Shown: positions 3,279 to 23,600 of the stretch, piece by piece
Layout: every line of letters begins with the position of its first letter
Position numbering within the stretch: the stretch's first letter is position 1
Virus record (IMG/VR): IMGVR_UViG_2548876944_000013
Span: 1-23,600 of that record
Length of the DNA stretch: 23,600 bases
Direction: 5' to 3' (one strand)
Origin: a virus
Lineage: Duplodnaviria > Heunggongvirae > Uroviricota > Caudoviricetes
The notes under the pieces: generated by a model
The model's input: only the letters and a program-made list of their open reading frames with translations
Databases searched by the model: none
What the model was told of the DNA's origin: nothing
Program-made: the position numbers and the translations under genes

Positions 3279-3581
3279 TTAGCGGTTGCTCAAACGTCTA
3301 TAACGAAGATGAGCGATCCCCCTATTTGTGCTAACGGTAATTACCGCCCCTTGCGGTGCAATACAAGAATGAATCTGTCCCCAATCATGACCCTTATGGC
3401 TTCCAGAAACACACAAACCATGAATAAGCAATTCAGAGTCACCACCGCCACCACCGGAAGAATGAGCACAGAATGAAATAGTCCCGAAAGCGTCGGCTGT
3501 CCAACCGTTAGGAATATCAAACCATCCTTGATTTGCTTTACCCGCCCTATTCCCCAAAGCGCCATCTACCCAAAATGCCAT
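3279..3581 (-). CDS. paralog 3 of a tandem triad of ~100-aa Gly/Trp-rich proteins (FDIPNGW motif), function unknown
   Basis: MAFWVDG...WFDIPNGW... Shares the N-terminal M-x-x-W, FDIPNGW/Y, Gly-rich centre and C-terminal V(S/T)F..G...YFKF-type end with the two upstream ORFs. Its ATG overlaps the stop of the preceding paralog (TAATG). Confidence 0.55.
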   Translation of the reverse strand: MAFWVDGALGNRAGKANQGWFDIPNGWTADAFGTISFCAHSSGGGGGDSELLIHGLCVSGSHKGHDWGQIHSCIAPQGAVITVSTNRGIAHLRYRRLSNR

Positions 3582-3886
3582 TAGTGCATTCTCCTGAATT
3601 TAAAATAATGCAAACTACCTTTACCCAATGTAAAGCTAACGGTAGCACCAGCGCCAACTAAAGAACTAGCGCCCCAACTCCCAGCATCACCAGCATGATG
3701 ACCTGATTCAATCAATCCATTTACAGCCAATTCAGAATCAAGATCACCAGCACCGTTAATGGCTTCCATATGAGCAAAAACAATTCCGCATGAATCAGTA
3801 ACCCAGCCGTTGGGGATATCAAAATATCCACCATTAGCCCAAATACTAATAGCGTTTGACATTCTTTGATTTATCCATCCAGCCAT
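3581..3886 (-). CDS. paralog 2 of the tandem triad (101 aa), function unknown
   Basis: MAGWINQ...YFDIPNGW...VSFTLGKGSLHYFKF. Start lies 2 nt after the stop of paralog 1 (translational coupling). Confidence 0.55.
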   Translation of the reverse strand: MAGWINQRMSNAISIWANGGYFDIPNGWVTDSCGIVFAHMEAINGAGDLDSELAVNGLIESGHHAGDAGSWGASSLVGAGATVSFTLGKGSLHYFKFRRMH

Positions 3887-3888
3887 AA

Positions 3889-4185
3889 TTAAAACTCCAT
3901 GAATTTAAAATATTCAACACCACCTTCACCCCCTAAACCAAAGGAGACGGTGCAGCCAGCAGGAACAAACGAATTTATAGTAGATCCCCAATTGGTCCCA
4001 CCACGACGACGAGCAACGGTCAAACCATCTACGTTAATATGTGCATCAGACCACCCACCACCAGCATTATGACGCATTACAGCGACACCAGCACGAGCAG
4101 TACCATAGCCGTTAGGAATATCAAATACATGCCATTTTAAAGCATCGATTTTAGTATTAATTTCACTACTTACCCAATATCCCAT
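3889..4185 (-). CDS. paralog 1 of the tandem triad (98 aa), function unknown
   Basis: MGYWVSS...VFDIPNGY...VSFGLGGEGGVEYFKF. SD aaggatt upstream. Immediately downstream of the fibre gene. Confidence 0.55.
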   Translation of the reverse strand: MGYWVSSEINTKIDALKWHVFDIPNGYGTARAGVAVMRHNAGGGWSDAHINVDGLTVARRRGGTNWGSTINSFVPAGCTVSFGLGGEGGVEYFKFMEF

Positions 4186-4223: not shown

Positions 4224-7200
4224 TTACCCTAATTTAGCTTCAATTGCAGCAAGACGTTCACGAAGAAGTTTATTTTCTTCGCTCATTTCTTGGACCGCTT
4301 TAATTAAAAGCGCGTTCACTGCGGAGTTTGAAATTGTAAAAATTTCTTCTGGGTTATCAAAACCACCAATTTTTGCGGTTTTAACAGCTTCCGGTAATAC
4401 CTCTTGTAAATCCTGTGCGATAATACCAATCTCATGACCTATAACTTCTCGGTCATTAAGAGATTTAACTTTATCGTAGGTTTTAACTTTGAGTTTATTT
4501 ACCTTATCCACCGCATTTTCTTCGTAATCTTCAACATTAATTTTCAGACGACGATCGGAACGAATATAAACATCGTTAAAGTTTCCGTTACCAGTGGCAT
4601 GAAATTCTCCACTTGCATGGAATTGATAATCAGCACCCTGAACATGAAGAACCGCTGCCGCAGTATTATTACTATCACCGGGACAATGAACGTCCATAAC
4701 AGCGATGTAGTTACGCCCCCAATCAACCGCTTTCCAAATAGCATGAGCACTATCAACGCTTTGTTGACAGTCAACCAACAAACCAGCAGGTCGGTCTCTC
4801 CATGCAACATATGCACCACCAGAAACCTCACCACGGATAAGTCCTTGATCTGCGGCATAAGGAACACGCCCTTCCAGTTTAATCATCGCGCCCTGGAAGT
4901 GATGACTAACTGCACCCTCATGATTATTTCGTATATGTAAAATACCATCATCTGTAGCCCAGATAACAGCCTTTTCTGCCTCGCTATCATCTCTAAACCA
5001 GACGTGGCGAGCACCAGCAGAGTTTTTGATAGTAATCCCGGAAGGTCCATGCACAGTAAAAGCGCCAGCAACATCAAACATCAAACTGTTATCTGTCCTG
5101 CGTTCAGCATAGAAGTGATAACCTTTGGAATCGCCGACTTCCATTACTGCCGCGCGACCAACTTCTGAATTTCCCCAATTATTAATAGAGAATCGTTCAG
5201 AGCTATTATTCATCTGATTTAGGTATAATGTACCATCAGTGAATGTTTCGCCAAAGAAACGAGTTTTAACGCCGTTAGTACCCCCCACGCGTTCAAATTC
5301 AGCCAAGAAACCTTTGGAATCTCGCATACTCAAAACGTTATTGCGTCCTGTATTACTGTTACCCCAATGGATTAATTCAATATAGTCCATTGACTGACGA
5401 GACCCTGATCTAAACACCATATTATCTTCGATGCGGGTGCTACCATCAATTCCCAGATGTAAACAGCGTGCGGTAGCTGTGCCACCTAGATCCAATCCAC
5501 CTTCGGCAAAATCATAGCTGAATGGTCTACGGCTATTCCACCCACCGAAAGAATCTTTTAAATCGGTAGTAAGGATATGGAAGCTAGAACCATCATTTCT
5601 AAAAATTAAGCCATAGTTGCCACCTTTAACAGCCAAACGAGCATTTTCAGATAATGCAACTTCGCTATTCATTACAATTTTCTGGCCTTTACCGCCAGTA
5701 ATATGTAATTCACCGTTTTCGATCAAGTTTATAGAGTTTTGACCGTTATCGTTCCACCAAATAAAATCTTTGGTCGTCAAATCACCAAAACCAAACCAAC
5801 CATTACGAACATCTTGACCAGTGCGATAATCCATGAAATTAAAATGGCTTGCTTCGTTTGGTCCTCGACGAATATCAATACCAGCATTAGAACCGGAACC
5901 TAAGCCACCATCGATGGTCAATCTACGAATATGTAACCCGGTTGCAGCCGAAAGCAATAATTGTTGGTTTACATCGTCATATCCAGTAGCAAGACGATAA
6001 TTTTGATCATCAACAGTTTCATGCCAGATAGTGGCAGGAGCAGAACTACGGAAGCGACGCAACATCTTTTTGCTGTTAGTTTGTTGTTCGTTCAAATGCT
6101 CAATGTCATATTGGCCTTGATGGTTTCCAGCAAAGTTTAACGTCCCACGGTTGCTAAAGTTATTGAACGATGAAATGTTAAGAGCATCAAAAATTTCGTC
6201 TGCAACAGGTTTTTCACCACCCAGATATTCAGGAGTATCCAACAGGTTTAAAGAAACACCACCGGAAGAAACTTGATATTCTGCTAAAACAAATCCTGTA
6301 TGTGCACCGTAGTAAGCGTAAAGATCGTAATTGTCGCCATCGGTTGGAATAGCACAAAAATGTTGTTCATAATGCCAAATAGTATAATACGCATTGAATA
6401 CAACACCTTTCGGGCTATTGTTGCCGCATCGAATCACCAATTCGATAATATTGGCTTGTCCATTATGTCCTACGTTATAACCGTTACCACCAACCAAACG
6501 GATCTTAGCCGTGCGACCGTGTTGTTGTGGCATTGTCAAAGTGCCTAGTTTAAACCAACCACCCTCGATACCAAAATTAAGCGTCTTCTGGAACAGTCGG
6601 TCAATTTCTGCTTTCGAATATGCGCCAATTTCAGCCGGAGTAGGTTTATCGCCTTCATGATACATGCGGTGAGAATATGACAAATCACCTAATTCATCAT
6701 AGCCGTATGTTCTTACAGTAGCATGTGGATTAGACCCATAAGTGAACTCGAAGCCACGAGCATGATTAACACCAGATGGATGCGGAACATGCAAGATCAT
6801 TGCAATATGACCCGCCAGGTCATTCATGCGGAATGCACCAAAGTAATCAAGATTACGCGCATTTGGATCATCAAAATAGTTTGCGGTCTTAGACAGCAAA
6901 TAACCATCAGTATAAGTGTTTACGTGTTTTTTGATGTACTTGCCATCAGCAGATCCATCGGCTGCATCAATACGGCTTTCTAAACGTGCCAGTTCAGAAT
7001 CAGTGTAAGACTTGTTATTGTCAACTTTGCTATGAATTGCTGTATTTTTGGCTTCAACATCACGGGTTAATGCTGCGACGTTATCCGCTGCCTCTTGCTT
7101 ATTGGCTGCAATCACACCAGTAAGGTTATTGTAGGTGTCAGTTAACTGATTTTCCGCATAGACTTTATTTGCTGCGATAGTGCGGTCAGTTTCTGCCTTA

Positions 7201-7754
7201 ATCAAATCAACCTTGTCATTGATTGCTTTGTCATTGCTTGCGATGGTTGCATCGGTGCGGGATTTAATATCATCAACTTTTTTATTGATGCGGGTGTCCA
7301 GTTCCTGAGTTGCTACAGCAGCCGCATTTTTATTAGCGTTGATGGTATCCGACAATTCAGCTTTAACACCAGCAAGGTCGGAAGCAGCTTTATTTTTATT
7401 GGCCTCGATTGTCGCGTCGGTTTCGCGTTTAATTACATCAACTTTATTGTTAATTTCTGCGTGATTTGCTGCGATGGTTGCATCAGTAGTTTGTTTAATT
7501 TCATCTACTTTAGCGTGAATATTGCGGTCATTTACTGCAATTGTGCTATCTAGTTCTTGTTTGTTAGCATCAACTTTAGATTCTAGTGCCGCGTGAGTTT
7601 CAGGAGAAACAGAGATTTGAACTACTTCATGATCTCGGTCTTTGGTAAAAATAACATGGTCTTTAAGGTTGATTGCTACCTCACCGACCTGTAATTGTTC
7701 CGGCGTTGGTTTTTTGCCAGAAACATTAGTTCGTTTAAATTGGATTGATTGCAT
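4224..7754 (-). CDS. long fibre protein (1176 aa) with N-terminal coiled-coil repeats and C-terminal self-cleaving intramolecular chaperone domain (peptidase S74-like)
   Basis: N-terminus KRTNVSGKKPTPEQLQVGEVAINLKD is fibre-like. About five repeats of KVDxIKxxTDATIxAN follow. C-terminal ~110 aa begins SDRRLK (Ser codon at 4557-4559) and continues with the GHEIGIIAQDLQEVLPEAV pattern typical of the endosialidase/T5 L-shaped-fibre chaperone domain. SD gaggtg. Confidence 0.8.
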   Translation of the reverse strand: MQSIQFKRTNVSGKKPTPEQLQVGEVAINLKDHVIFTKDRDHEVVQISVSPETHAALESKVDANKQELDSTIAVNDRNIHAKVDEIKQTTDATIAANHAEINNKVDVIKRETDATIEANKNKAASDLAGVKAELSDTINANKNAAAVATQELDTRINKKVDDIKSRTDATIASNDKAINDKVDLIKAETDRTIAANKVYAENQLTDTYNNLTGVIAANKQEAADNVAALTRDVEAKNTAIHSKVDNNKSYTDSELARLESRIDAADGSADGKYIKKHVNTYTDGYLLSKTANYFDDPNARNLDYFGAFRMNDLAGHIAMILHVPHPSGVNHARGFEFTYGSNPHATVRTYGYDELGDLSYSHRMYHEGDKPTPAEIGAYSKAEIDRLFQKTLNFGIEGGWFKLGTLTMPQQHGRTAKIRLVGGNGYNVGHNGQANIIELVIRCGNNSPKGVVFNAYYTIWHYEQHFCAIPTDGDNYDLYAYYGAHTGFVLAEYQVSSGGVSLNLLDTPEYLGGEKPVADEIFDALNISSFNNFSNRGTLNFAGNHQGQYDIEHLNEQQTNSKKMLRRFRSSAPATIWHETVDDQNYRLATGYDDVNQQLLLSAATGLHIRRLTIDGGLGSGSNAGIDIRRGPNEASHFNFMDYRTGQDVRNGWFGFGDLTTKDFIWWNDNGQNSINLIENGELHITGGKGQKIVMNSEVALSENARLAVKGGNYGLIFRNDGSSFHILTTDLKDSFGGWNSRRPFSYDFAEGGLDLGGTATARCLHLGIDGSTRIEDNMVFRSGSRQSMDYIELIHWGNSNTGRNNVLSMRDSKGFLAEFERVGGTNGVKTRFFGETFTDGTLYLNQMNNSSERFSINNWGNSEVGRAAVMEVGDSKGYHFYAERRTDNSLMFDVAGAFTVHGPSGITIKNSAGARHVWFRDDSEAEKAVIWATDDGILHIRNNHEGAVSHHFQGAMIKLEGRVPYAADQGLIRGEVSGGAYVAWRDRPAGLLVDCQQSVDSAHAIWKAVDWGRNYIAVMDVHCPGDSNNTAAAVLHVQGADYQFHASGEFHATGNGNFNDVYIRSDRRLKINVEDYEENAVDKVNKLKVKTYDKVKSLNDREVIGHEIGIIAQDLQEVLPEAVKTAKIGGFDNPEEIFTISNSAVNALLIKAVQEMSEENKLLRERLAAIEAKLG

Positions 7755-13696: not shown

Positions 13697-15604
13697 TTAG
13701 AACGATGTTACCCAGCTACGGCCTCTATTTGGGCGTCTGGCGATGTTTTGACGTTGTGGTCGTGTGATTGGCTTAGTTTCTTCTATTTGCTCGTCAGATT
13801 GCGATTTAGGAGCTTCTACGGATTCTTCGACAACACGGTTTAAGCTGTCTTTCATTGCAATGAGTTTATCCCATGACATTTTTGAAAGAACGTAGCGAGA
13901 AGCAGCATAGCTATAAACCAGACAGTCGAGAGCCTCGTTTCGGGTACTACCTGGATTTTTCACCCAACGCACGCCAGTAGTAGTACGCTTGATGGATTCA
14001 CTCAAAAGCTGATCGAGATAATCATCAGGAACGGTTTCTGATATTTCTAAGCCAATATGAGGATTATCTTTCAGGTTTCTAACCAGCATTTCACGAACAG
14101 CGGATTTACCAACGTTAACACCCAGCATAAGCAATTCATGACCACCTGTGCGGGTAGGTTTAACCGGAATCACTGGAGCATTACCAGATGAACTACCTTT
14201 GATAGCGTGTAGGTTCTTCCACTTGCCGCAAATACGGTATCCGGCTTGAGTGAATCGACCGTTCGATGTATCAAGGAAGCTGGCGAGCATTGGTACACGT
14301 TCACCATTAACGTTATAGAATTTGGTTTTCTTGAAGTTAACCAGGCGATCCCAAACAGGTGATTCATATCGTTCACAGTTATGATCGTAAAAGCTGCGGT
14401 GATCCAGAATGTAAACCTTATCTTTCGCTACACCTAAGATGGTAGATTCTGCGCGGTCCAATTGCTGGTCAATTCCTGAACACAAGAAAATCACGTCATC
14501 AGGGATATTCTCGATAGAAACATCTGTTTTGAGTTGTTCCAGTTCATTTGCTTCTACTGCCGTGTCCTGATCGTCGTATACCTTGCCTAACACGGTGTTA
14601 AAAAAGGATTGTAAATCAAAGGATTGCCACGCATGACTAAAATCAACCACACAAGCGCGGATACTACTGAAAGGTGAATACAGACGGCTGATCCAGAATC
14701 CTGCTACTTCACTTTCACGGGTTGCTCTCCACTCGCCTTGCGCTACTGCCCTAATTCGTTCCCCTTCTGTCCATGCGTTCTTACAGTGGGGGCAAATATA
14801 ACGAGCGGTATCAGGATCGGGTAAGTTCTTACCATCGATGTTACGCCATTCAAATTGAACGTTTTCCCACTCGATCACCTGGTGTTCCCCGCAATGAGGA
14901 CACGGAACAAAAAACATACGCATATCGCTTGATAACCATTGCTGGTTAATGCTTCCGAGCTTACTGGTCGGGGTACTGGATACGACTAATCGGCCTTCAT
15001 CGCCAAAGGTAGTTAAACGGTTAGCAGCCAGTGCCACCGGATCACCTTCTTCTGAGGCTGTAGCAGCATCGATTTCGTCAAGCAATCCAACCTTTGCGGT
15101 CTTACCACGTAGGGTCGATGGACTGGTTAGCGATACCATGTAAAGGAAGTGATTCGTTTTTAGCTGTAGCTGGTTATTGTTGTTAACCGCATTGCGATCA
15201 TTCTTGTCTGTAACCACGTCTTTTAATGCATCACATGCTTCGATAGACGGTCGGATCTTACCAGCGAGATATTGAGACATTTCTTTAGCGGTTGATTGTC
15301 CGATAATCATATTGCATGGATCGTTAGCCATCTGGTTAAACAGGATACCGTTCAGGATGGTAGTCTTTCCGATCTGCGCACTGGTCATCAGAACATACTT
15401 TTTCTTGTTCTCAAGGAAAGGAGCATCAATCATGCCTTTCTGGAATGACAGCAATTTAACTTTATCCCCAGCTTGAGGACCATCTACCAGCACCATATTA
15501 GCTTCGCACCATTCAGAAGGAAGGAGCTTAGGCGGTGGCGTAATATATTTGGCTGCATTTTTGAGAATCTTTTTTAATTTGGCCTTATTAGAAATTAGTT
15601 TCAT
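13697..15604 (-). CDS. terminase large subunit (GpA family, 635 aa)
   Basis: Walker A-like [11 protein letters not shown] near the N-terminus. CPHCGE...CPHCKN double-cysteine motif mid-protein. Length and domain order match lambda-gpA-type terminases. SD gaggg. Confidence 0.8.
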
Positions 15605-17798: not shown

Positions 17799-17997
17799 AG
17801 TGGAAATCCTCTAAAAGAAAGTGAATCAATCTAATATTATTTATAAAGAGAAAATTCTTGTTATTATGAAAGGTGATTGTATTCAGTCGGGCATAGCCCT
17901 CCTTCATAGTTTTGATTAAATCATCATCAAAACGAAGAAGTATCTTTAGAATATAAGAATCTTTCTTTTGGAGAAATAATAATCAGGAAGCAATTTA

Positions 17998-18026
17998 GCA
18001 ACCGAAGGTTGCAATCCCGAAGGGAT
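17998..18026. other. two adjacent short hairpins with GAA/UUC loops
   Basis: gcaacc-gaa-ggttgc followed directly by atccc-gaa-gggat. Confidence 0.4.
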
Positions 18027-18123
18027 ACCAATACCTTTCTAGAAAGTGATTGTTACTCACTTCGTTCGTTTACTAGAATCAGTTAGTAACTAGTATTAAA
18101 TCCCTTTCTAAGAAAATCCTTTC

Positions 18124-18258
18124 AAAAGCGAGTGAACGCCGTAGGCGTGAACGTGAGCGAAGCGAACTATCCAATCCCTTTCGAATCCTGCTTGCAGGTC
18201 TTAGAAGGTGTTGATGGGCGCTTCGCGCACGGCTACGCCGTATTCTTTTTGCGAGATC
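18124..18258. repeat. large imperfect inverted repeat with internal 5-bp-stem mini-palindromes
   Basis: Left arm carries acgcc-gta-ggcgt and gtgagcgaagcg. Right arm carries cgcttcgcgcac and acggc-tac-gccgt. The centre holds cctgcttgcagg. Region is GC-richer than its surroundings. Confidence 0.45.
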
Positions 18259-18372
18259 TTTCTTGAACGTAGTGAGAGAAAACGAGCAAAAAGGAGAACG
18301 TTAGTTCGAATTTTATATTCTATGGTCTGTGGGGCTAAATATCCTTCAAGATCATACACTTATGAGATTGAA

Positions 18373-18491
18373 GTGTAGGGTTAGTGTAGGTGTGTAGGTT
18401 TCATAGTGTAGGTTTGAGGGTGTTATAGTGTAGGTTTACTGGCTAGTGTAGTGTAGGCCAATCCCTTTAAAGTGTAGGTTTGTAGTGTAGG
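18373..18491 (+). repeat. iteron-like array: eight direct copies of GTGTAGG (extended (T/A)AGTGTAGG(T/G)TT)
   Basis: Copies start at 18373, 18384, 18392, 18406, 18428, 18451, 18472 and 18485, all in the same orientation, in a non-coding region. Confidence 0.7.
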
Positions 18492-18599
18492 GTTTTCATC
18501 AAAAATTTTGATAGAAAATTCTTGTATATTATTTAATCATAAAATCACCAAAAATCTCGGTAACCGCATGATTTAAAAGGAATGATCAAAAGGTCGCCG

Positions 18600-18608
18600 T
18601 GCTATAAT
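18600..18608 (+). promoter_or_regulatory. candidate extended -10 promoter (TGcTATAAT)
   Basis: Perfect TATAAT at 18603-18608 preceded by TG at 18600-18601. No good -35. Confidence 0.35.
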
Positions 18609-18688
18609 AGGTTATAAAGGTTGATAATCGTTATCCGCCATTTTCACACAAAAATTTTGATAGTCATTTCTCGCTTAGATCAAGTGTA

Positions 18689-18717
18689 TTGACAACTGTC
18701 AAGGATTATTTTATACT
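18689..18717 (+). promoter_or_regulatory. sigma70-type promoter with operator-like palindrome over the -35
   Basis: TTGACA (18689-18694), 17-bp spacer, TATACT (18712-18717). The -35 sits inside the palindrome ttgacaactgtcaa. Confidence 0.55.
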
Positions 18718-19059
18718 TTTTCTCGTTGGTAGGGGTTGAAATTTTCGAAACAATCCCCATATTGATGATAAGCAAGATTTTTTCGTGTATAAATACATGC
18801 ATGAAATGATTGTTCACTTCTGAAAATCCCCTGATTCACTGTTAACACATACAGCACTGGTTAAACATACAGTACTTTTTCGATTGAATAATGTACGAAT
18901 TGATTAATTATTAATCTTATCTTTAGCAATTCGTGCTCCCACTGATCGGATATACAGTGGTTTTACAGGGTTTTCTGAAAATCATTTTATAAATAGAAGT
19001 ATCGAGGGCGAAAAGCTCTTTTTATTGTCCTTATTAATCCACATTTGAGGAATCTACTT

Positions 19060-19239
19060 ATGGCTAGACCTGTTAAGTTTACTCGTGAAATGATTGTTGA
19101 TATTGCTAAACGCTTTTATGGCGATACTGAACGAGGCGGCGAGAATTTCTTTAAGAAGGAAGGAATTGATAGAAGCGGATTCTATAAGCTAATGAAGAAA
19201 TACGAAATTCAGATAAAGATTAACGTTCAAGTTTGTTAA
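19060..19239 (+). CDS. small HTH DNA-binding protein (59 aa from the ATG at 19060), paralog of the 85-aa protein
   Basis: MARPVKFTREMIVDIAKRFY...GIDRSGFYKLMKKYEI. SD gagg 9 nt upstream. The ORF track starts at an upstream TTG. Confidence 0.5.
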   Translation: MARPVKFTREMIVDIAKRFYGDTERGGENFFKKEGIDRSGFYKLMKKYEIQIKINVQVC

Positions 19240-19358: not shown

Positions 19359-20354
19359 ATGAAAAATTCTAAGCGCATCACCTTCAACCTGTTTATTAAA
19401 TCCAACGGCAAACTGAACATTACCGTCATGGAAGGTAAAGCAAGCAAACAAGACAAATCCTTTGAAGTAGTATCCGGTAAGACTCTGACCGAAATGCGTC
19501 AGAATGCTGGCATCAAAGACGGTGCTGAATGGCAGATCACTAACCGTTTCGACAAACGTCACGTTAAACCTACACTGGTAGAAGGTGAATCCGTTTATTG
19601 CTTCGCTCGTGCTGTTAAAGCTGATGAAACTTACTATCTGGCTGTTGTTAAAACTGCTTCCGGCTTCCGTGCTGTAATGCATCACAAGAGCAAACGTAAC
19701 GAATACGGCGTAGAGACCCAGGAAGTCGCAAAACGCTTCCGTACTGTTGCTACCGAATCCACTGTAAAGGATGTTTCTGGTACTGTTAACACCGCTAAAG
19801 GCGGTTCCTTCTACAACCACGCATTACAGGTTACTTCCTCCTTCTTCTGCAAAAAAGAAGCACAGAAAGAAGTTTCTCCGGTAGTAGTTGAAGAAGTTAA
19901 AGAAGAAGTTGCAGTGGTTGAATCTTCCGAAGTTGAAGCACTGAAAGCACGCATTGCTGAACTGGAAGCTGAAAACGCATCTCTGAAAGCTGAACTGGCA
20001 GCACAGGAAACCACTTTCGAAGTAGCAGCGGTTGAAGTTGAAGCAGTTGAAGAAAAATCCATTGATGAAGAACTGGAAGAACTCCTTAACTATCGCTGGG
20101 GTGTTGTTGCAGAAGTAGAACAAGAAGTTGCTCCGGTAGTTGTTCCGGTTGAAGTTGAAAAAGAATCCGCACCTGTTACTAACTTTGAATCCCTGCGCAA
20201 TAACTTTATGGCTAAATTCAAAACCACTTGGGAAGATACCGAAGAAGAACAAGAAGAGATTGAAGTAAACGAAGACGAGATCCGCGAAGCACAGATGGCA
20301 CTGCATGACGCTATCTACGACACCAACTACAGCGCCTACGCATACGCAGCTTAA
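19359..20354 (+). CDS. highly acidic protein (331 aa) with strongly optimised codon usage; function unknown
   Basis: SD caggag 9 nt upstream. Codon choice (CGT, CTG, GGT, GCT, TCC, ACC, GAA, AAA) matches that of the capsid and tail tube genes. The C-terminal half is Glu/Val/Ala-rich with a coiled-coil segment EVEALKARIAELEAENASLKAELAAQE. Confidence 0.6.
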   Translation: MKNSKRITFNLFIKSNGKLNITVMEGKASKQDKSFEVVSGKTLTEMRQNAGIKDGAEWQITNRFDKRHVKPTLVEGESVYCFARAVKADETYYLAVVKTASGFRAVMHHKSKRNEYGVETQEVAKRFRTVATESTVKDVSGTVNTAKGGSFYNHALQVTSSFFCKKEAQKEVSPVVVEEVKEEVAVVESSEVEALKARIAELEAENASLKAELAAQETTFEVAAVEVEAVEEKSIDEELEELLNYRWGVVAEVEQEVAPVVVPVEVEKESAPVTNFESLRNNFMAKFKTTWEDTEEEQEEIEVNEDEIREAQMALHDAIYDTNYSAYAYAA

Positions 20355-20369
20355 TAGAGGGGTGAATCT

Positions 20370-20612
20370 ATGATGAATCAAAACAAAGAATTTCTGGGTA
20401 ATCTGATGTTAGAAATTACCAAAATGAAAGAAAGAATGGTAGCGATGGAATCAGAGATTAAAACACTTAAAGCTGATAATAAGGCGTTGAGAAAGTCCTT
20501 AAAGCTGATTGATGAGACTAATGCGGTTATGATGGATCATGTATTCCCTGAGTGGCGAAATGAAACTAAACCTACACAACATAAGAAACTTACACTTCGA
20601 ATTGTTGCATAA
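20370..20612 (+). CDS. small coiled-coil protein (80 aa), likely co-transcribed with the 331-aa gene
   Basis: Start 15 nt after the upstream stop with SD agagggg. Heptad-like MKERMVAMESEIKTLKADNKALRKSLKLI. Confidence 0.5.
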   Translation: MMNQNKEFLGNLMLEITKMKERMVAMESEIKTLKADNKALRKSLKLIDETNAVMMDHVFPEWRNETKPTQHKKLTLRIVA

Positions 20613-20617
20613 AAAAA

Positions 20618-20635
20618 GGGACTCCGAAGAGTCCC
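20618..20635 (-). terminator. hairpin terminator (7-bp stem; A7 on plus side, T7 on minus side)
   Basis: gggactc-cgaa-gagtccc. U7 follows on the minus strand. Lies directly after the 80-aa gene stop on the plus strand. Confidence 0.55.
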
Positions 20636-20720
20636 TAGTAAGTTTAGGTTAGGTTTGCACAACAAAGATGAGGTTATAATGAACATAATGCTACATTATT
20701 CTTTAAAGCCAGAAAAATAA

Positions 20721-20736
20721 CCGCCCCGAAGGGCGG
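20721..20736 (-). terminator. intrinsic terminator (minus strand)
   Basis: ccgccc-cgaa-gggcgg. The minus-strand reading has a UUCG loop followed by uuauuuuucu. Confidence 0.5.
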
Positions 20737-20892
20737 GAGGATTAATACTCAATCTATACTTGTTATGTTTTTATGTTGTATAGATCCTGACTATGAAAAC
20801 ACTGTACTGGAAGTGTGTTTTTATGGCTTTTAATCGGGAATCCTCAAAGAAGATCCCCTGTTAATAACCATAAGGAGAAAAGGCAGATTACA

Positions 20893-21069
20893 CTATTATT
20901 TAGTATCCTTTTTACAGCAACTAAAAAGAATAAACAAAAAGAAGCATACCCAGCCGTAAGGCGTACCGATTAGAAATTTGAAAAACACCACCAGCGATAT
21001 AAAAATCAATTTAATGCCAGCGACGATAGTCAAAAACAGCAGAGTAGCAAAGTAGACAAAAAGATCCAT
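20893..21069 (-). CDS. small membrane protein (58 aa, two predicted TM helices); not in ORF track
   Basis: Translated by hand: MDLFVYFATLLFLTIVAGIKLIFISLVVFFKFLIGTPYGWVCFFLFILFSCCKKDTK. SD agagga 7 nt upstream. Confidence 0.5.
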
Positions 21070-21122
21070 AGATAATCCTCTTTGAAAACGACCATCATCT
21101 ATAGTTCAATTCATCGATTTAA

Positions 21123-21225
21123 TTAATGATACTTGAAAGCGTTACACAAAGTAGAAATGCCAATATGTGCCAGTGAATATACGATAGTTAATCCTACAGC
21201 CAGATAAATCAAAAATTCAACCATA
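21123..21225 (-). CDS. small hydrophobic peptide (33 aa, one TM helix) from the internal ATG with good SD
   Basis: MVEFLIYLAVGLTIVYSLAHIGISTLCNAFKYH. SD gagga 7 nt upstream. The longer 83-aa ORF in the track overlaps the upstream gene and has no SD. Confidence 0.45.
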
Positions 21226-21254
21226 GGTAAATCCTCAAATAAGAAAAAGGTTAG

Positions 21255-21273
21255 CGGGGGATGTTCTCCCCCG
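21255..21273 (-). terminator. hairpin after the Nu1-like gene (minus strand)
   Basis: cggggga-tgttc-tcccccg, a 7-bp stem. A U-rich run begins 5 nt downstream on the minus strand. Confidence 0.45.
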
Positions 21274-21324
21274 TAGACGTTGACCAGCTCAACATCCTTC
21301 ACGTATATATTTAGTATAGAAATT

Positions 21325-21879
21325 TTAAGACACATCAAATTCATCGTCTTCTTCTGGTTCTTGTTCCGGTTCATCGATTAATGCTAATTCTTCTTCCTCG
21401 TCTTCTCCCAAATCCGCATTTTCGAACAAGTCCCCTACTTCATTTAAACGACGCTCGATGATCTCCCTTAGCTTATTCTTCAATGTTTTCTGATCAGTGG
21501 CAGATTCGAGAATTTCTAAAGCGTCGATTGTGGCGATCTGCAAAATAGTCTGTTTCACCTTTCCGCAATATTCCGCTAGTTCCTGTTCTACATACCCGAC
21601 AGGAATCAGGAGATTCATTTTTTCCTGGTTCTCTCGTTCGGCTGCATCTGCCAAAGCACGCTCACGGCGTAATTTCTCTACATCGATTTGTTCTTTGATA
21701 GAAGTTTGTTTAAGCGGGTTGATAATATTTTTCAAGACCCATTCTGTTCCTTCTTTGGCTGGCACGCGGCGGGTATTGGTGTTAAATGGCAATCCCCTTT
21801 CTAACCATCGCTTACCGCCACCATTCAATGTATAACCATATAAACGGGAAATTTCTGTAAGGGTTAATTCTTCTTTCAT
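21325..21879 (-). CDS. Nu1-like DNA-binding protein, candidate terminase small subunit (184 aa)
   Basis: N-terminal winged-HTH-like LTLTEISRLYGYTLNGGGKRWLERGLPF and EKLRRERALADAAERENQEK resemble lambda Nu1 as I recall it. Acidic C-terminal tail. It is 5.7 kb away from the large terminase gene. Confidence 0.45.
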   Translation of the reverse strand: MKEELTLTEISRLYGYTLNGGGKRWLERGLPFNTNTRRVPAKEGTEWVLKNIINPLKQTSIKEQIDVEKLRRERALADAAERENQEKMNLLIPVGYVEQELAEYCGKVKQTILQIATIDALEILESATDQKTLKNKLREIIERRLNEVGDLFENADLGEDEEEELALIDEPEQEPEEDDEFDVS

Positions 21880-22003
21880 TGGTTATCCTCCATTAAATTT
21901 GCGTAATTTTATTTATTGGTTTTACGCACAATCTAAGCGCCTAAATCGCATTCTAACGAAGGGAAAGATCCAGTAATGGTAAGGGCTAGGAAGTGGGTTA
22001 ATA

Positions 22004-22039
22004 GTCGCGTAGCGACCGCGCCATAAGTGAAGTGATCAC
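22004..22039. other. candidate cos/packaging-site palindromes upstream of the Nu1-like gene
   Basis: gtcgc-gta-gcgac (22004-22016) followed by cgcgcc and gtgatcac. Inverted ttgcgtaa/ttacgcac elements lie between it and the gene start. Confidence 0.25.
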
Positions 22040-22237
22040 GTTTTAGAATCCCGCCCGCGTATCAAATACCGGGGTGCCGAAAACTCCCTTTATTTCATCC
22101 GTGGAACAGTACCTTTTTAATTTGTCAAGCATTAATTTCTTAATTTAATTACTAAATCTCATCCCAATAATTGAAAAAATATCAAAAATCAATAAAGTAA
22201 GCATCTAAAAGTCAGTCCATACCAAAAGAGGTATAAA

Positions 22238-23017
22238 ATGAAAAACATTATCGCTGCTATCGTGCTTTCTGCTACTGCTTTCGGTGCTGATGCTGCGTCC
22301 TTTGATTGCACTAAGGCTACTACCAAAGCAGAGAAGTTTATTTGTGCTAATGAGTCAATCTCCGCACTGGATTCTAAACTTCATGAAGTATATGTTAAGG
22401 CTGTTAAGATTGATCCGTCTCTTAAACAAGAGCAACGCAACTGGAATAAAACTGTTCGTGATACAATGATCAATATCGGGCAGATTCAGCCACTGGAGGC
22501 TGTATACAACGCTCAAATCCAAAACTTGATGAATGTATTATCTAAAGAAGAAACCGCGTCAGAGAGCGATTCAGAGACTTCTGCGAAGATTGAAGAAGAA
22601 CAACCGAAACAGGAAGAAGTAAAGAAACTGAATGTTACCGCGATTTACGCATGTACTACAAAATTTACATGGAAAGTTATCGATGGTGAGGAAACAGAAG
22701 CTGTAAAAGATAAACTCTACGGAAACAAAACTTTTGATAATAACGGCGGTAAACTTAAGATCAAAATGGTAGACGATGTTCCTGTATCTTTTGTGTATTC
22801 CGACAAGTATGATGTTTATAAATCAAGTCTCAAGCCATCTAAAGAGAATCCAAACGCAATGGAAGGTAAATCCAAACAGGATGCTATTGGACGTGTTAAC
22901 ACTTATAACATCTGGGTAAGCAAAAAAGGTGACATGCGTCTTGAAGTAATTGAACCAAAATTTGATTCTGAATATAAACACACTCAATTTGCATGTGACA
23001 TGGTAGACGCAGAGTAA
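22238..23017 (+). CDS. secreted protein with N-terminal DUF1311 (LprI-type lysozyme-inhibitor-like) domain and uncharacterised C-terminal domain (259 aa)
   Basis: Signal peptide MKNIIAAIVLSATAFGADA. SFDCTKATTKAEKFICANESISALDSKLHEVY...QRNW matches the DUF1311 cysteine pattern. SD agagg. Codon usage is the 'high-expression' type. Confidence 0.55.
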   Translation: MKNIIAAIVLSATAFGADAASFDCTKATTKAEKFICANESISALDSKLHEVYVKAVKIDPSLKQEQRNWNKTVRDTMINIGQIQPLEAVYNAQIQNLMNVLSKEETASESDSETSAKIEEEQPKQEEVKKLNVTAIYACTTKFTWKVIDGEETEAVKDKLYGNKTFDNNGGKLKIKMVDDVPVSFVYSDKYDVYKSSLKPSKENPNAMEGKSKQDAIGRVNTYNIWVSKKGDMRLEVIEPKFDSEYKHTQFACDMVDAE

Positions 23018-23249
23018 GAGGTGAAATGATGCAATTCAATAGCATGAAGATTACTCAAAAATGGTGGGATGCGATGAAAGCTAACCACCAGAACGATATT
23101 AATTAAGTAACATTTTAGATATACAGCACCCAGCTAACAGATCACCTTTTATGGATTTCATTATAACCCCTTTGATCTGGAAACTATGTTAATTAGTTGA
23201 TTTCTAAGCCTTGTCCTTGAGATGGGGCTTTTTATTGCAAAATTTTTAG

Positions 23250-23579
23250 TTATTTTGGGTTGACTACATTCGGGTTGCCAATTCGCCTGGCTAACTCTTG
23301 CTGAGTGATTTCTGACTGTAAAAAAGCATTTAACAGCAATACTTTAGAGGCGACGCTCAAAGGTACTTCAATAAAGTGATCATGACTATTTAATGGCGAA
23401 GGTAACGGGATAAGCTCGTTATCTTCAAAATAAAAATCAAATGCGGTCAGTAAAGCATCTTTTGCCGCTTCCATCGCTTCAGCGACAGTTTCGCCCTGCG
23501 TCAACGCTTCAGGGATATCCACAAAAGAAACCATATAACCGCCTTCCGGCGCGGGTGTAAGAGTGACGGGATAACGCAT
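23250..23579 (-). pseudogene. hicB: hicB (HicB antitoxin) 5' portion, 3'-truncated; novel C-terminus NPNVVNPK then stop
   Basis: MRYPVTLTPAPEGGYMVSFVDIPEALTQGETVAEAMEAAKDALLTAFDFYFEDNELIPLPSPLNSHDHFIEVPLSVASKVLLLNAFLQSEITQQELARRIG matches E. coli HicB as I recall it. The expected continuation through the DNA-binding helices is replaced by 8 unrelated codons. Confidence 0.6.
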
Positions 23580-23600
23580 AATTTCGACTGTCTCTCGCAT

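Follow-up and report, generated by a model that had tools for sequence, protein, structure and literature searches.

The window analysed here, 23,600 nucleotides (nt) of tailed-phage DNA (IMG/VR record IMGVR_UViG_2548876944_000013, positions 1 to 23,600), belongs to an Escherichia coli prophage of ~36 kb with a siphovirus-like structural gene set, and carries near one end a gene for a 259-residue protein in which an LprI-like N-domain, predicted to be secreted, is joined to a hypervariable β-barrel. Here we report that this gene is a mosaic. Its signal peptide, N-domain and linker closely match a gene of virulent Krischvirus phages, whereas its barrel is one of a set of old alleles that are distributed across virulent and temperate phages. 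We hold this account of the anatomy and origin of the gene with high confidence. More tentatively, we propose that the protein may act as a periplasmic neutraliser of incoming cell-wall hydrolases, by analogy with Spackle of phage T4, a reading that we consider possible and short of probable.

The gene and its surroundings are laid out as follows (positions in the window; pLDDT, predicted local distance difference test).

22133–22237 (+): AT-rich upstream region, 23% GC over 105 nt, holding a weak σ70-like site and a Shine–Dalgarno (SD) sequence
22238–23017 (+): LprI-like open reading frame (ORF), 259 amino acids (aa), ATG start, from the ORF list and the raw sequence
22238–22294 (+): signal peptide, residues 1–19, MKNIIAAIVLSATAFGADA, with a predicted signal peptidase I (SPase I) cut after A19
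22295–22552 (+): LprI/DUF1311-like N-domain, residues 20–105, four helices, motif AASFDCxKAxxxxExxIC
22553–22624 (+): acidic low-complexity linker, residues 106–129, rich in E, S, K and Q; pLDDT <50 for residues 105–129
22625–23017 (+): hypervariable C-terminal barrel, residues 130–259 plus the stop codon, eight strands
23026–23106 (+): 26-aa ORF with GAGGTG upstream, 5′ stump of the RB49p261 homologue
23206–23240 (+): intrinsic-terminator-like hairpin (23206–23230; 10-bp stem, 4 GC pairs) and T-run
23250–23600 (−): truncated hicB, N-terminal ~103 codons kept; Pfam HicB_lk_antitox, E = 5.5e-8; 'missing C-terminus' in RefSeq
23269–23275 (no strand): prophage/host junction (attachment, att, end), beyond which the sequence matches hicB in 5,323 of 5,426 complete E. 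coli genomes

The protein matches PHROG 14799 over its full length (E = 4.5e-114, residues 1–255 against profile positions 1–260 of 262), and the barrel alone matches the same profile (E = 3.3e-22). A tblastn search found homologues in 115 phage records, 57 of which cover at least 80% of the protein. The close relatives are encoded by Krischvirus phages, the virulent RB49-like T4-type myoviruses, and distant ones by Klebsiella Marfavirus, Aeromonas T4-like phages, the lambda-like phage ev099 and SSU5. The LprI-like gene is thus not peculiar to this prophage and occurs widely among virulent Krischvirus phages. Existing catalogues list the family as PHROG 14799, under the NCBI name 'LprI family' and as UniProt Q7Y3G7. 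In RB49 the homologue is ORF262 (RB49p262, NP_891833; 'LprI-like N-terminal domain-containing protein' in its UniProt entry), a gene of the leftward-transcribed strand that is located between topoisomerase gene 52 and holin gene t and is followed by RB49p261. Directly upstream of the gene, RB49 and G37-3 have an early-promoter-like TTGACA-17-TAAGAT, and the prophage has a different upstream region instead. The RB49 and window proteins share their length class, their architecture and C139/C253, with 93–97% protein identity over the N-domain and linker, whereas their barrels are only 26% identical. Moreover, ORF262 belongs to the early region of a virulent myovirus, whereas the window gene sits as a moron at a prophage end, and the downstream gene is intact in RB49 and a stump in the window prophage.

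DNA alignment locates the boundaries of the exchange. Identity to RB49 and G37-3 is ~96–97% from the ATG through the N-domain and linker, to ~22618, collapses over the barrel, returns at the stop codon and ends at ~23102, the right-hand homology block spanning window positions 23013–23102 (blastn). As judged from the sequence, the left breakpoint zone of the variable cassette is in the linker, at ~22600–22620. The earlier note described a 26-aa ORF trailing the gene; this ORF, with its GAGGTG, is present (at 23026–23106 rather than 23028–23108, a shift of 2), but it is not a gene of its own. Because Krischvirus homology stops ~75 nt into it, it represents the first ~24 codons of the RB49p261 homologue, the next Krischvirus gene; it matches positions 1–22 of 93 in PHROG 15915 (E = 1.1e-6), the G37-3 homologue having 95 residues plus a stop (96 codons), and it is missing from the sister prophage CP035865. 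Two prophages at the same hicB site, otherwise 98–100% identical, differ only in one replaced segment (22600–23046 in strain PD23 and 22600–23205 in CP035865). The whole stretch between the ATG and a point ~75 nt inside the following gene was very probably exchanged as a cassette, by homologous recombination, between virulent Krischvirus phages and the temperate, siphovirus-like hicB prophage.

The tail-fibre region is, from its alignment, a second Krischvirus-derived module in the same prophage. The tail-fibre gene (4224–7754, −; 1,176 aa) encodes a protein that shares 77% identity, across 893 aa, with the distal long-tail-fibre protein (gp37-like) of the T4-type Krischvirus G37-3, and the three small genes downstream of it (3279–4185, −) are also common to G37-3.

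Comparison of 21 homologues revealed a constant N-domain and a variable barrel. Residues 1–106 are almost invariant in the alignment, C24, C36, C139 and C253 are invariant without exception, and the linker differs in length through indels. The barrels comprise at least six subtypes of type A, with 26–70% mutual identity, and an unalignable type B; types A and B are not detectable homologues, as their comparison by hhalign gave 4.8% and covered the first strand only. Among the N-domains, synonymous divergence (dS) is 0.05–0.27 and non-synonymous divergence (dN) 0.004–0.027, rising to dS ~1.3 and dN ~0.07 against a distant Krischvirus-like contig (L015). With dN/dS of ~0.05–0.1, the N-domain is under strong purifying selection. 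At the same dS as their N-domains, the barrels are 26–50% identical or unalignable, which indicates that barrel alleles have been replaced by old alleles and have not drifted in place. Each of the two barrel types is represented in Krischvirus-like contigs and also in hicB prophages, which implies repeated exchange between virulent and temperate phages. No diversity-generating repeats were found around the gene. Barrel type tracks neither the distal tail-fibre type nor receptor specificity: the RB49 and G37-3 barrels are identical and their gp37 proteins only 47.5% identical, whereas the window fibre is 77% identical to G37-3 gp37 and the barrels 26%.

A constant domain joined to a deeply polymorphic, recombining one is typical of specificity modules, and the gene might accordingly encode a periplasmic specificity protein unrelated to cell-wall hydrolases. 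Such a protein would confer superinfection exclusion or immunity by blocking entry, as do T4 Imm, T5 Llp and Cor, with the N-domain as an anchor or scaffold and the barrel binding a variable target of the envelope or of a phage, for example a receptor or porin at its periplasmic face, an injection component, or a bacteriocin. The early-region location in virulent phages and the moron position in the prophage would fit this idea, as would the likeness of the barrel fold to the ligand- or protein-binding surface barrels of TbpB, fHbp and NHBA. However, the independence of barrel type from distal tail-fibre type across RB49, G37-3 and the window, the predicted solubility of the protein, which has neither membrane anchor nor lipobox, and the failure to find homology to known superinfection exclusion proteins or a match in PADLOC argue against it, and we rate this alternative as fairly unlikely.

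The earlier note had described a secreted LprI/DUF1311-domain protein with a second domain, and signal-peptide features together with a Pfam match above the cutoff support that prediction. The N-terminus, MKNIIAAIVLSATAFGADA followed by ASFDC, shows the n-, h- and c-regions expected of a Sec/SPase I signal peptide, with K2, a 13-residue hydrophobic core and an A-D-A motif at −3/−1, as read from the sequence, and residues 1–19 are modelled by AlphaFold2 at pLDDT <50. A lipobox was sought and not found: the end of this segment, AFGADA/ASFDC, lacks L-[AS]-[GA]-C, and the first cysteine, C24, follows SFD. Pfam LprI (PF07007) scores 26.9 bits over residues 24–76 (cutoff 22 bits; E = 6.8e-6), and its threshold is likewise passed by the homologues P0015 and P0020 and by the F48, AP1, ev099 and SSU5 proteins. 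The only cysteines of the N-domain are the invariant pair C24 and C36. In the AlphaFold2 model of the whole protein, the N-domain forms helices at residues 30–37, 39–58, 62–80 and 83–105, with pLDDT 65–81, and is followed by the linker, which is disordered, and a β domain. A search of the N-domain against PDB sequences returned nothing significant, and a profile search for domain fusions returned short LprI-only proteins and no informative fusions.

The C-terminal domain had been considered unplaceable. Its fold can now be assigned; by sequence, no relative was detected in MliC or elsewhere outside its own family. Modelled alone, the domain forms an eight-stranded β-barrel (pLDDT 90.5; predicted template modelling score 0.83). 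C139 lies on strand 1 and C253 on strand 8, and the confidently modelled fold would be closed by a disulfide between these invariant residues. Charged and hydrophobic residues alternate along the strands, which suggests that the barrel is soluble and not membrane-embedded. Among the solved structures that resemble it most compactly are PhiA of Brucella (PMC8334348) and PliC, both inhibitors of peptidoglycan hydrolases. Other structural matches are outer-membrane barrels, TbpB, NHBA, fHbp, Cap15 and lipocalin-like proteins. A search of the barrel profile against 1.84 billion representatives retrieved its own family alone, plus spurious repeats in PKD-domain proteins.

These matches also bear on the idea that the barrel is a calycin-like domain, binding a small molecule or lipid in the manner of YceI, lipocalins or the Cap15 barrel and sequestering a periplasmic signal, lipid or antimicrobial. 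The matches to such proteins are no better than those to many unrelated eight-stranded barrels, no family-level sequence match was found, and sequence turnover as extreme as that of the barrel would be unusual for a conserved small-ligand pocket. We regard this possibility as very unlikely.

The prophage splits hicB, leaving 117 nt of its C-terminal part at the far end, where a large serine recombinase is encoded, and 309 nt of its N-terminal part at the end with the LprI-like gene. The truncated HicB ends in a 10–13-residue phage-derived tail (...IGNPNVVNPK). Homology to uninterrupted hicB starts only at 23269–23275, which places the LprI-like gene ~250 bp inside the element and not in the host flank, an origin that the earlier note had raised as a possibility; its placing of the gene beside a disrupted hicB at the element boundary was correct. 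A 1,351-bp region is 100% identical to two chromosomes and is present in 51 of 5,426 complete E. coli genomes, always chromosomal and in single copy.

The LprI-like gene is oriented opposite to its neighbour and has its own SD (AAGAGG, 22226–22231, 6 nt 5′ of the ATG) and terminator-like hairpin. The hairpin is kept in sister prophages (98% conserved in L018), and terminator-like sites number 5, against 1.2 ± 1.0 in shuffled sequences. Its own orientation, its bounding terminator and its place at the att end agree with the moron-like position previously suggested, and as a putative transcription unit of its own inside the element, outside the lytic core, the gene has the layout of moron or lysogenic-conversion cargo. 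The proposed AT-rich upstream region of its own is also present. Its σ70-like site (TTGAAA-16-TAAAGT, 22171–22198) scores only 9/12 and may serve as a promoter, and such sites are in no excess in the region (7, against 5.0 ± 2.3 in shuffles). The description of the gene as strongly codon-optimised is not supported: its GC content at third codon positions is 0.33, and its approximate frequency of optimal codons (Fop) is 0.61, mid-range among the window ORFs (0.39–0.87). Higher values were obtained for the genes of the capsid (0.71) and tail tube (0.78) and for the ORF at 19359–20354 (0.87). Searches found no structured RNA in 20500–23600 (Rfam, E ≤ 1), nothing significant in NCBIfam and no defence system in PADLOC.

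In the prophage, the gene could be a functionless passenger, a by-product of recombination with a Krischvirus phage that also brought the tail-fibre module. The adjacent gene stump, which shows illegitimate or partial transfer, the Krischvirus-like gp37 module itself and the failure to find a convincing lysogenic promoter are compatible with this explanation. Yet the coding sequence, annotated 'lysozyme inhibitor LprI family protein', is intact and not a pseudogene in 20 of the 20 E. coli records among the matches listed, sister prophages retain the gene and swap the barrel only, the N-domain is under purifying selection, and the gene has its own SD and terminator. We consider a passenger role highly improbable.

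Under the favoured reading, the product would be a soluble periplasmic protein, exported through Sec and SPase I and stabilised by two disulfides, that binds and neutralises peptidoglycan-degrading enzymes entering the periplasm from outside. Candidate targets would be the tail-associated lysozymes of superinfecting phages and muramidase-type effectors of type VI secretion systems (T6SSs), and the infected or lysogenic cell would be protected, making the protein a functional Spackle analogue. The barrel, with its fast turnover, would set specificity, and the conserved N-domain would serve for binding or as a scaffold. The gp5 tail protein of RB49 has a Phage_lysozyme domain (PF00959), and no Spackle homologue was found in the whole RB49 genome by tblastn at E ≤ 10. 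Secreted LprI-domain proteins have been predicted to provide T6SS immunity against lysozyme-like effectors (PMC9796082, PMC12135965), and the DUF1311 protein Etsi4 rescues E. coli from periplasmic Etse4 toxicity (PMC12981562). The domain order shared with Mycobacterium tuberculosis LprI (PMC7933661) also speaks for this role. The endolysins of RB49 and of the window prophage are M15 peptidases, so a muramidase inhibitor would not block the phages' own lysis. In the literature, we found no paper that assigns a function to LprI-like proteins of Krischvirus phages or of prophages.

A number of results weigh against a hydrolase-neutralising role. The PF07007 alignment spans only profile positions 1–71 of 106 and is a partial, modest match, and the barrel fold is generic. 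Membership of the barrel in the MliC family (PF09864) was rejected: 11 barrel sequences gave no Pfam match at E ≤ 10, hhalign against an enterobacterial MliC alignment gave probabilities of 5.4% and 2.6% (0.8% for type B), and a PDB sequence search lent no support. The lysozyme-binding loop motifs of MliC are SxSGAxY and YxxxTKG, and both are absent from the barrel sequences; our MliC alignment (A6) carries an invariant S-A-S-G-x-R-Y block. The barrel thus has the eight-stranded fold of MliC and PliC, as modelled, and resembles PliC/PhiA-type inhibitors in fold only, without being a member of the MliC family. BLASTP gave no alignment to T4 Spackle at E ≤ 100, and RB49 encodes several other secreted proteins that could fill the Spackle role. 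That carriers have non-muramidase endolysins fails as a general rule, because the lambda-like phage ev099, a distant carrier of the N-domain, has the lysozyme-type RrrD. Inhibition by M. tuberculosis LprI is attributed to its MliC domain, and deletion of Salmonella ScwA, a periplasmic LprI-domain protein, revealed no role in lysozyme resistance, ScwA instead controlling MltD levels (PMC7933661). An LprI domain alone need not confer lysozyme inhibition.

ScwA also provides the model for an alternative in which the protein regulates endogenous or the phage's own cell-wall enzymes, in lysis timing or wall homeostasis. ScwA is the closest studied Gram-negative periplasmic LprI-domain protein that is not a lipoprotein, it affects MltD and not lysozyme resistance, and it is a disulfide-bonded substrate of DsbA/DsbB (PMC7933661); in Krischvirus phages, the LprI-like gene lies within ~3 kb of holin gene t. 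However, it is on the strand opposite to t, in the early block, and ScwA differs in architecture, its LprI domain being C-terminal in a 275-aa helical protein. The hypervariable barrel is left unexplained as well, since the murein hydrolases of the host and the endolysins of the phages themselves are conserved. We judge this alternative distinctly unlikely.

The neutralisation of incoming hydrolases can be extended to a wider proposal, in which the gene would be a polymorphic periplasmic exclusion or immunity locus operating across phage lifestyles, with a constant N-domain and interchangeable, anciently diverged barrel alleles that recombine between Krischvirus phages and hicB prophages. The range of tail lysozymes, or of other lytic proteins entering the periplasm, that are neutralised would depend on the allele, and in Krischvirus phages the locus would replace Spackle. 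We offer this extension as a speculative one and think it unlikely.

The genomic neighbourhoods of the relatives and of the window gene contain further features. In three Krischvirus-like contigs (L015 6142–6390, L016 2863–3111 and L017 6756–7004), a Tad2-like (anti-Thoeris) gene with a weak Pfam match belongs to the same early block as the LprI-like gene, a few genes farther downstream, suggesting a block rich in host-interaction and counter-defence genes. In Marfavirus F48, a distant two-domain LprI-like homologue (L008 1501–2253) lies between the primase/helicase and dCTPase (gene 56 equivalent) genes, a location similar to the neighbourhood of spackle in T4 (61-61.1-61.2-sp). At the hicB locus, the N-terminal antitoxin domain of HicB is left detached from its C-terminal part (L004 11350–11466), and in strain PK8568 the adjacent hicA is frameshifted. 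The neighbour of the LprI-like gene (21325–21879, −; 184 aa) matches PHROG 57, 'terminase small subunit' (E = 1.6e-10), has no Pfam match and lies beside the prophage end, ~6 kb from the large terminase gene (13697–15604). Farther away, positions 18368–18494 hold at least six direct repeats of TAGTGTAGG(T/G)TT, spaced at 11, 22 or 44 nt, within a stretch of ~1.3 kb (~17800–19060) in which every ORF is shorter than 70 aa; the array is iteron- or operator-like and is possibly the prophage origin or a regulatory region. The ORF at 19359–20354 (+; 331 aa), which has the highest Fop in the window, is annotated as hypothetical, has no PADLOC match and has an acidic, repeat-like C-terminal half rich in E, V and A.

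Three aspects appear to be new: the combination of an LprI-like N-domain with a disulfide-closed barrel outside the MliC family, the extreme turnover of barrel alleles, and the repeated exchange of the cassette between Krischvirus phages and a temperate prophage. If the neutraliser reading is true, the missing Spackle-like function of RB49-type phages would be identified, and temperate phages would be seen to borrow envelope-protection genes from virulent ones. One N-domain with at least seven very different barrels would constitute a natural allele series for periplasmic inhibitor specificity towards phage or T6SS enzymes. The finding would be relevant to the design of phage cocktails, as Krischvirus phages are used therapeutically; ~1% of the complete E. 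coli genomes are those of lysogens with the gene, which might resist some phages. Should the proposed role fail, the gene still illustrates cleanly how virulent and temperate phages exchange a cassette.

Among known systems, T4 Spackle (gp61.3) is likewise the product of a phage early gene and a small, signal-peptide-bearing, disulfide-bonded periplasmic protein, and it inhibits the gp5 tail lysozyme, leading to superinfection exclusion (PMC7677548, PMC7650644); it differs in being a single helical domain of 75 aa that is well conserved (178 homologues reported) and has demonstrated activity. The DUF1311/LprI immunity proteins of T6SSs, such as Etsi4 of enterohaemorrhagic E. coli and the products of Pantoea orphan immunity genes, share the signal peptide and DUF1311 domain and neutralise periplasm-acting, cell-wall-targeting effectors (PMC12981562, PMC9796082, PMC12135965). 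They are encoded beside effectors in T6SS islands and have no hypervariable barrel, whereas the window gene has no effector gene nearby. Salmonella ScwA is, like the window protein as predicted here, a soluble, periplasmic, disulfide-bonded and horizontally acquired LprI-domain protein (PMC7933661), but it is all-helical, with its LprI domain at the other end of the chain, and modulates MltD. Lastly, the lysozyme inhibitor LprI of M. tuberculosis (Rv1541c) is a lipoprotein with a true MliC barrel, whereas the window protein has no lipobox, no MliC signal and a partial LprI match; both are secreted, or predicted to be, and place a small β-barrel after an LprI/DUF1311 domain (PMC7933661). With its LprI-like domain followed by a barrel of PhiA/PliC-like fold, the window protein mirrors the layout of M. 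tuberculosis LprI.

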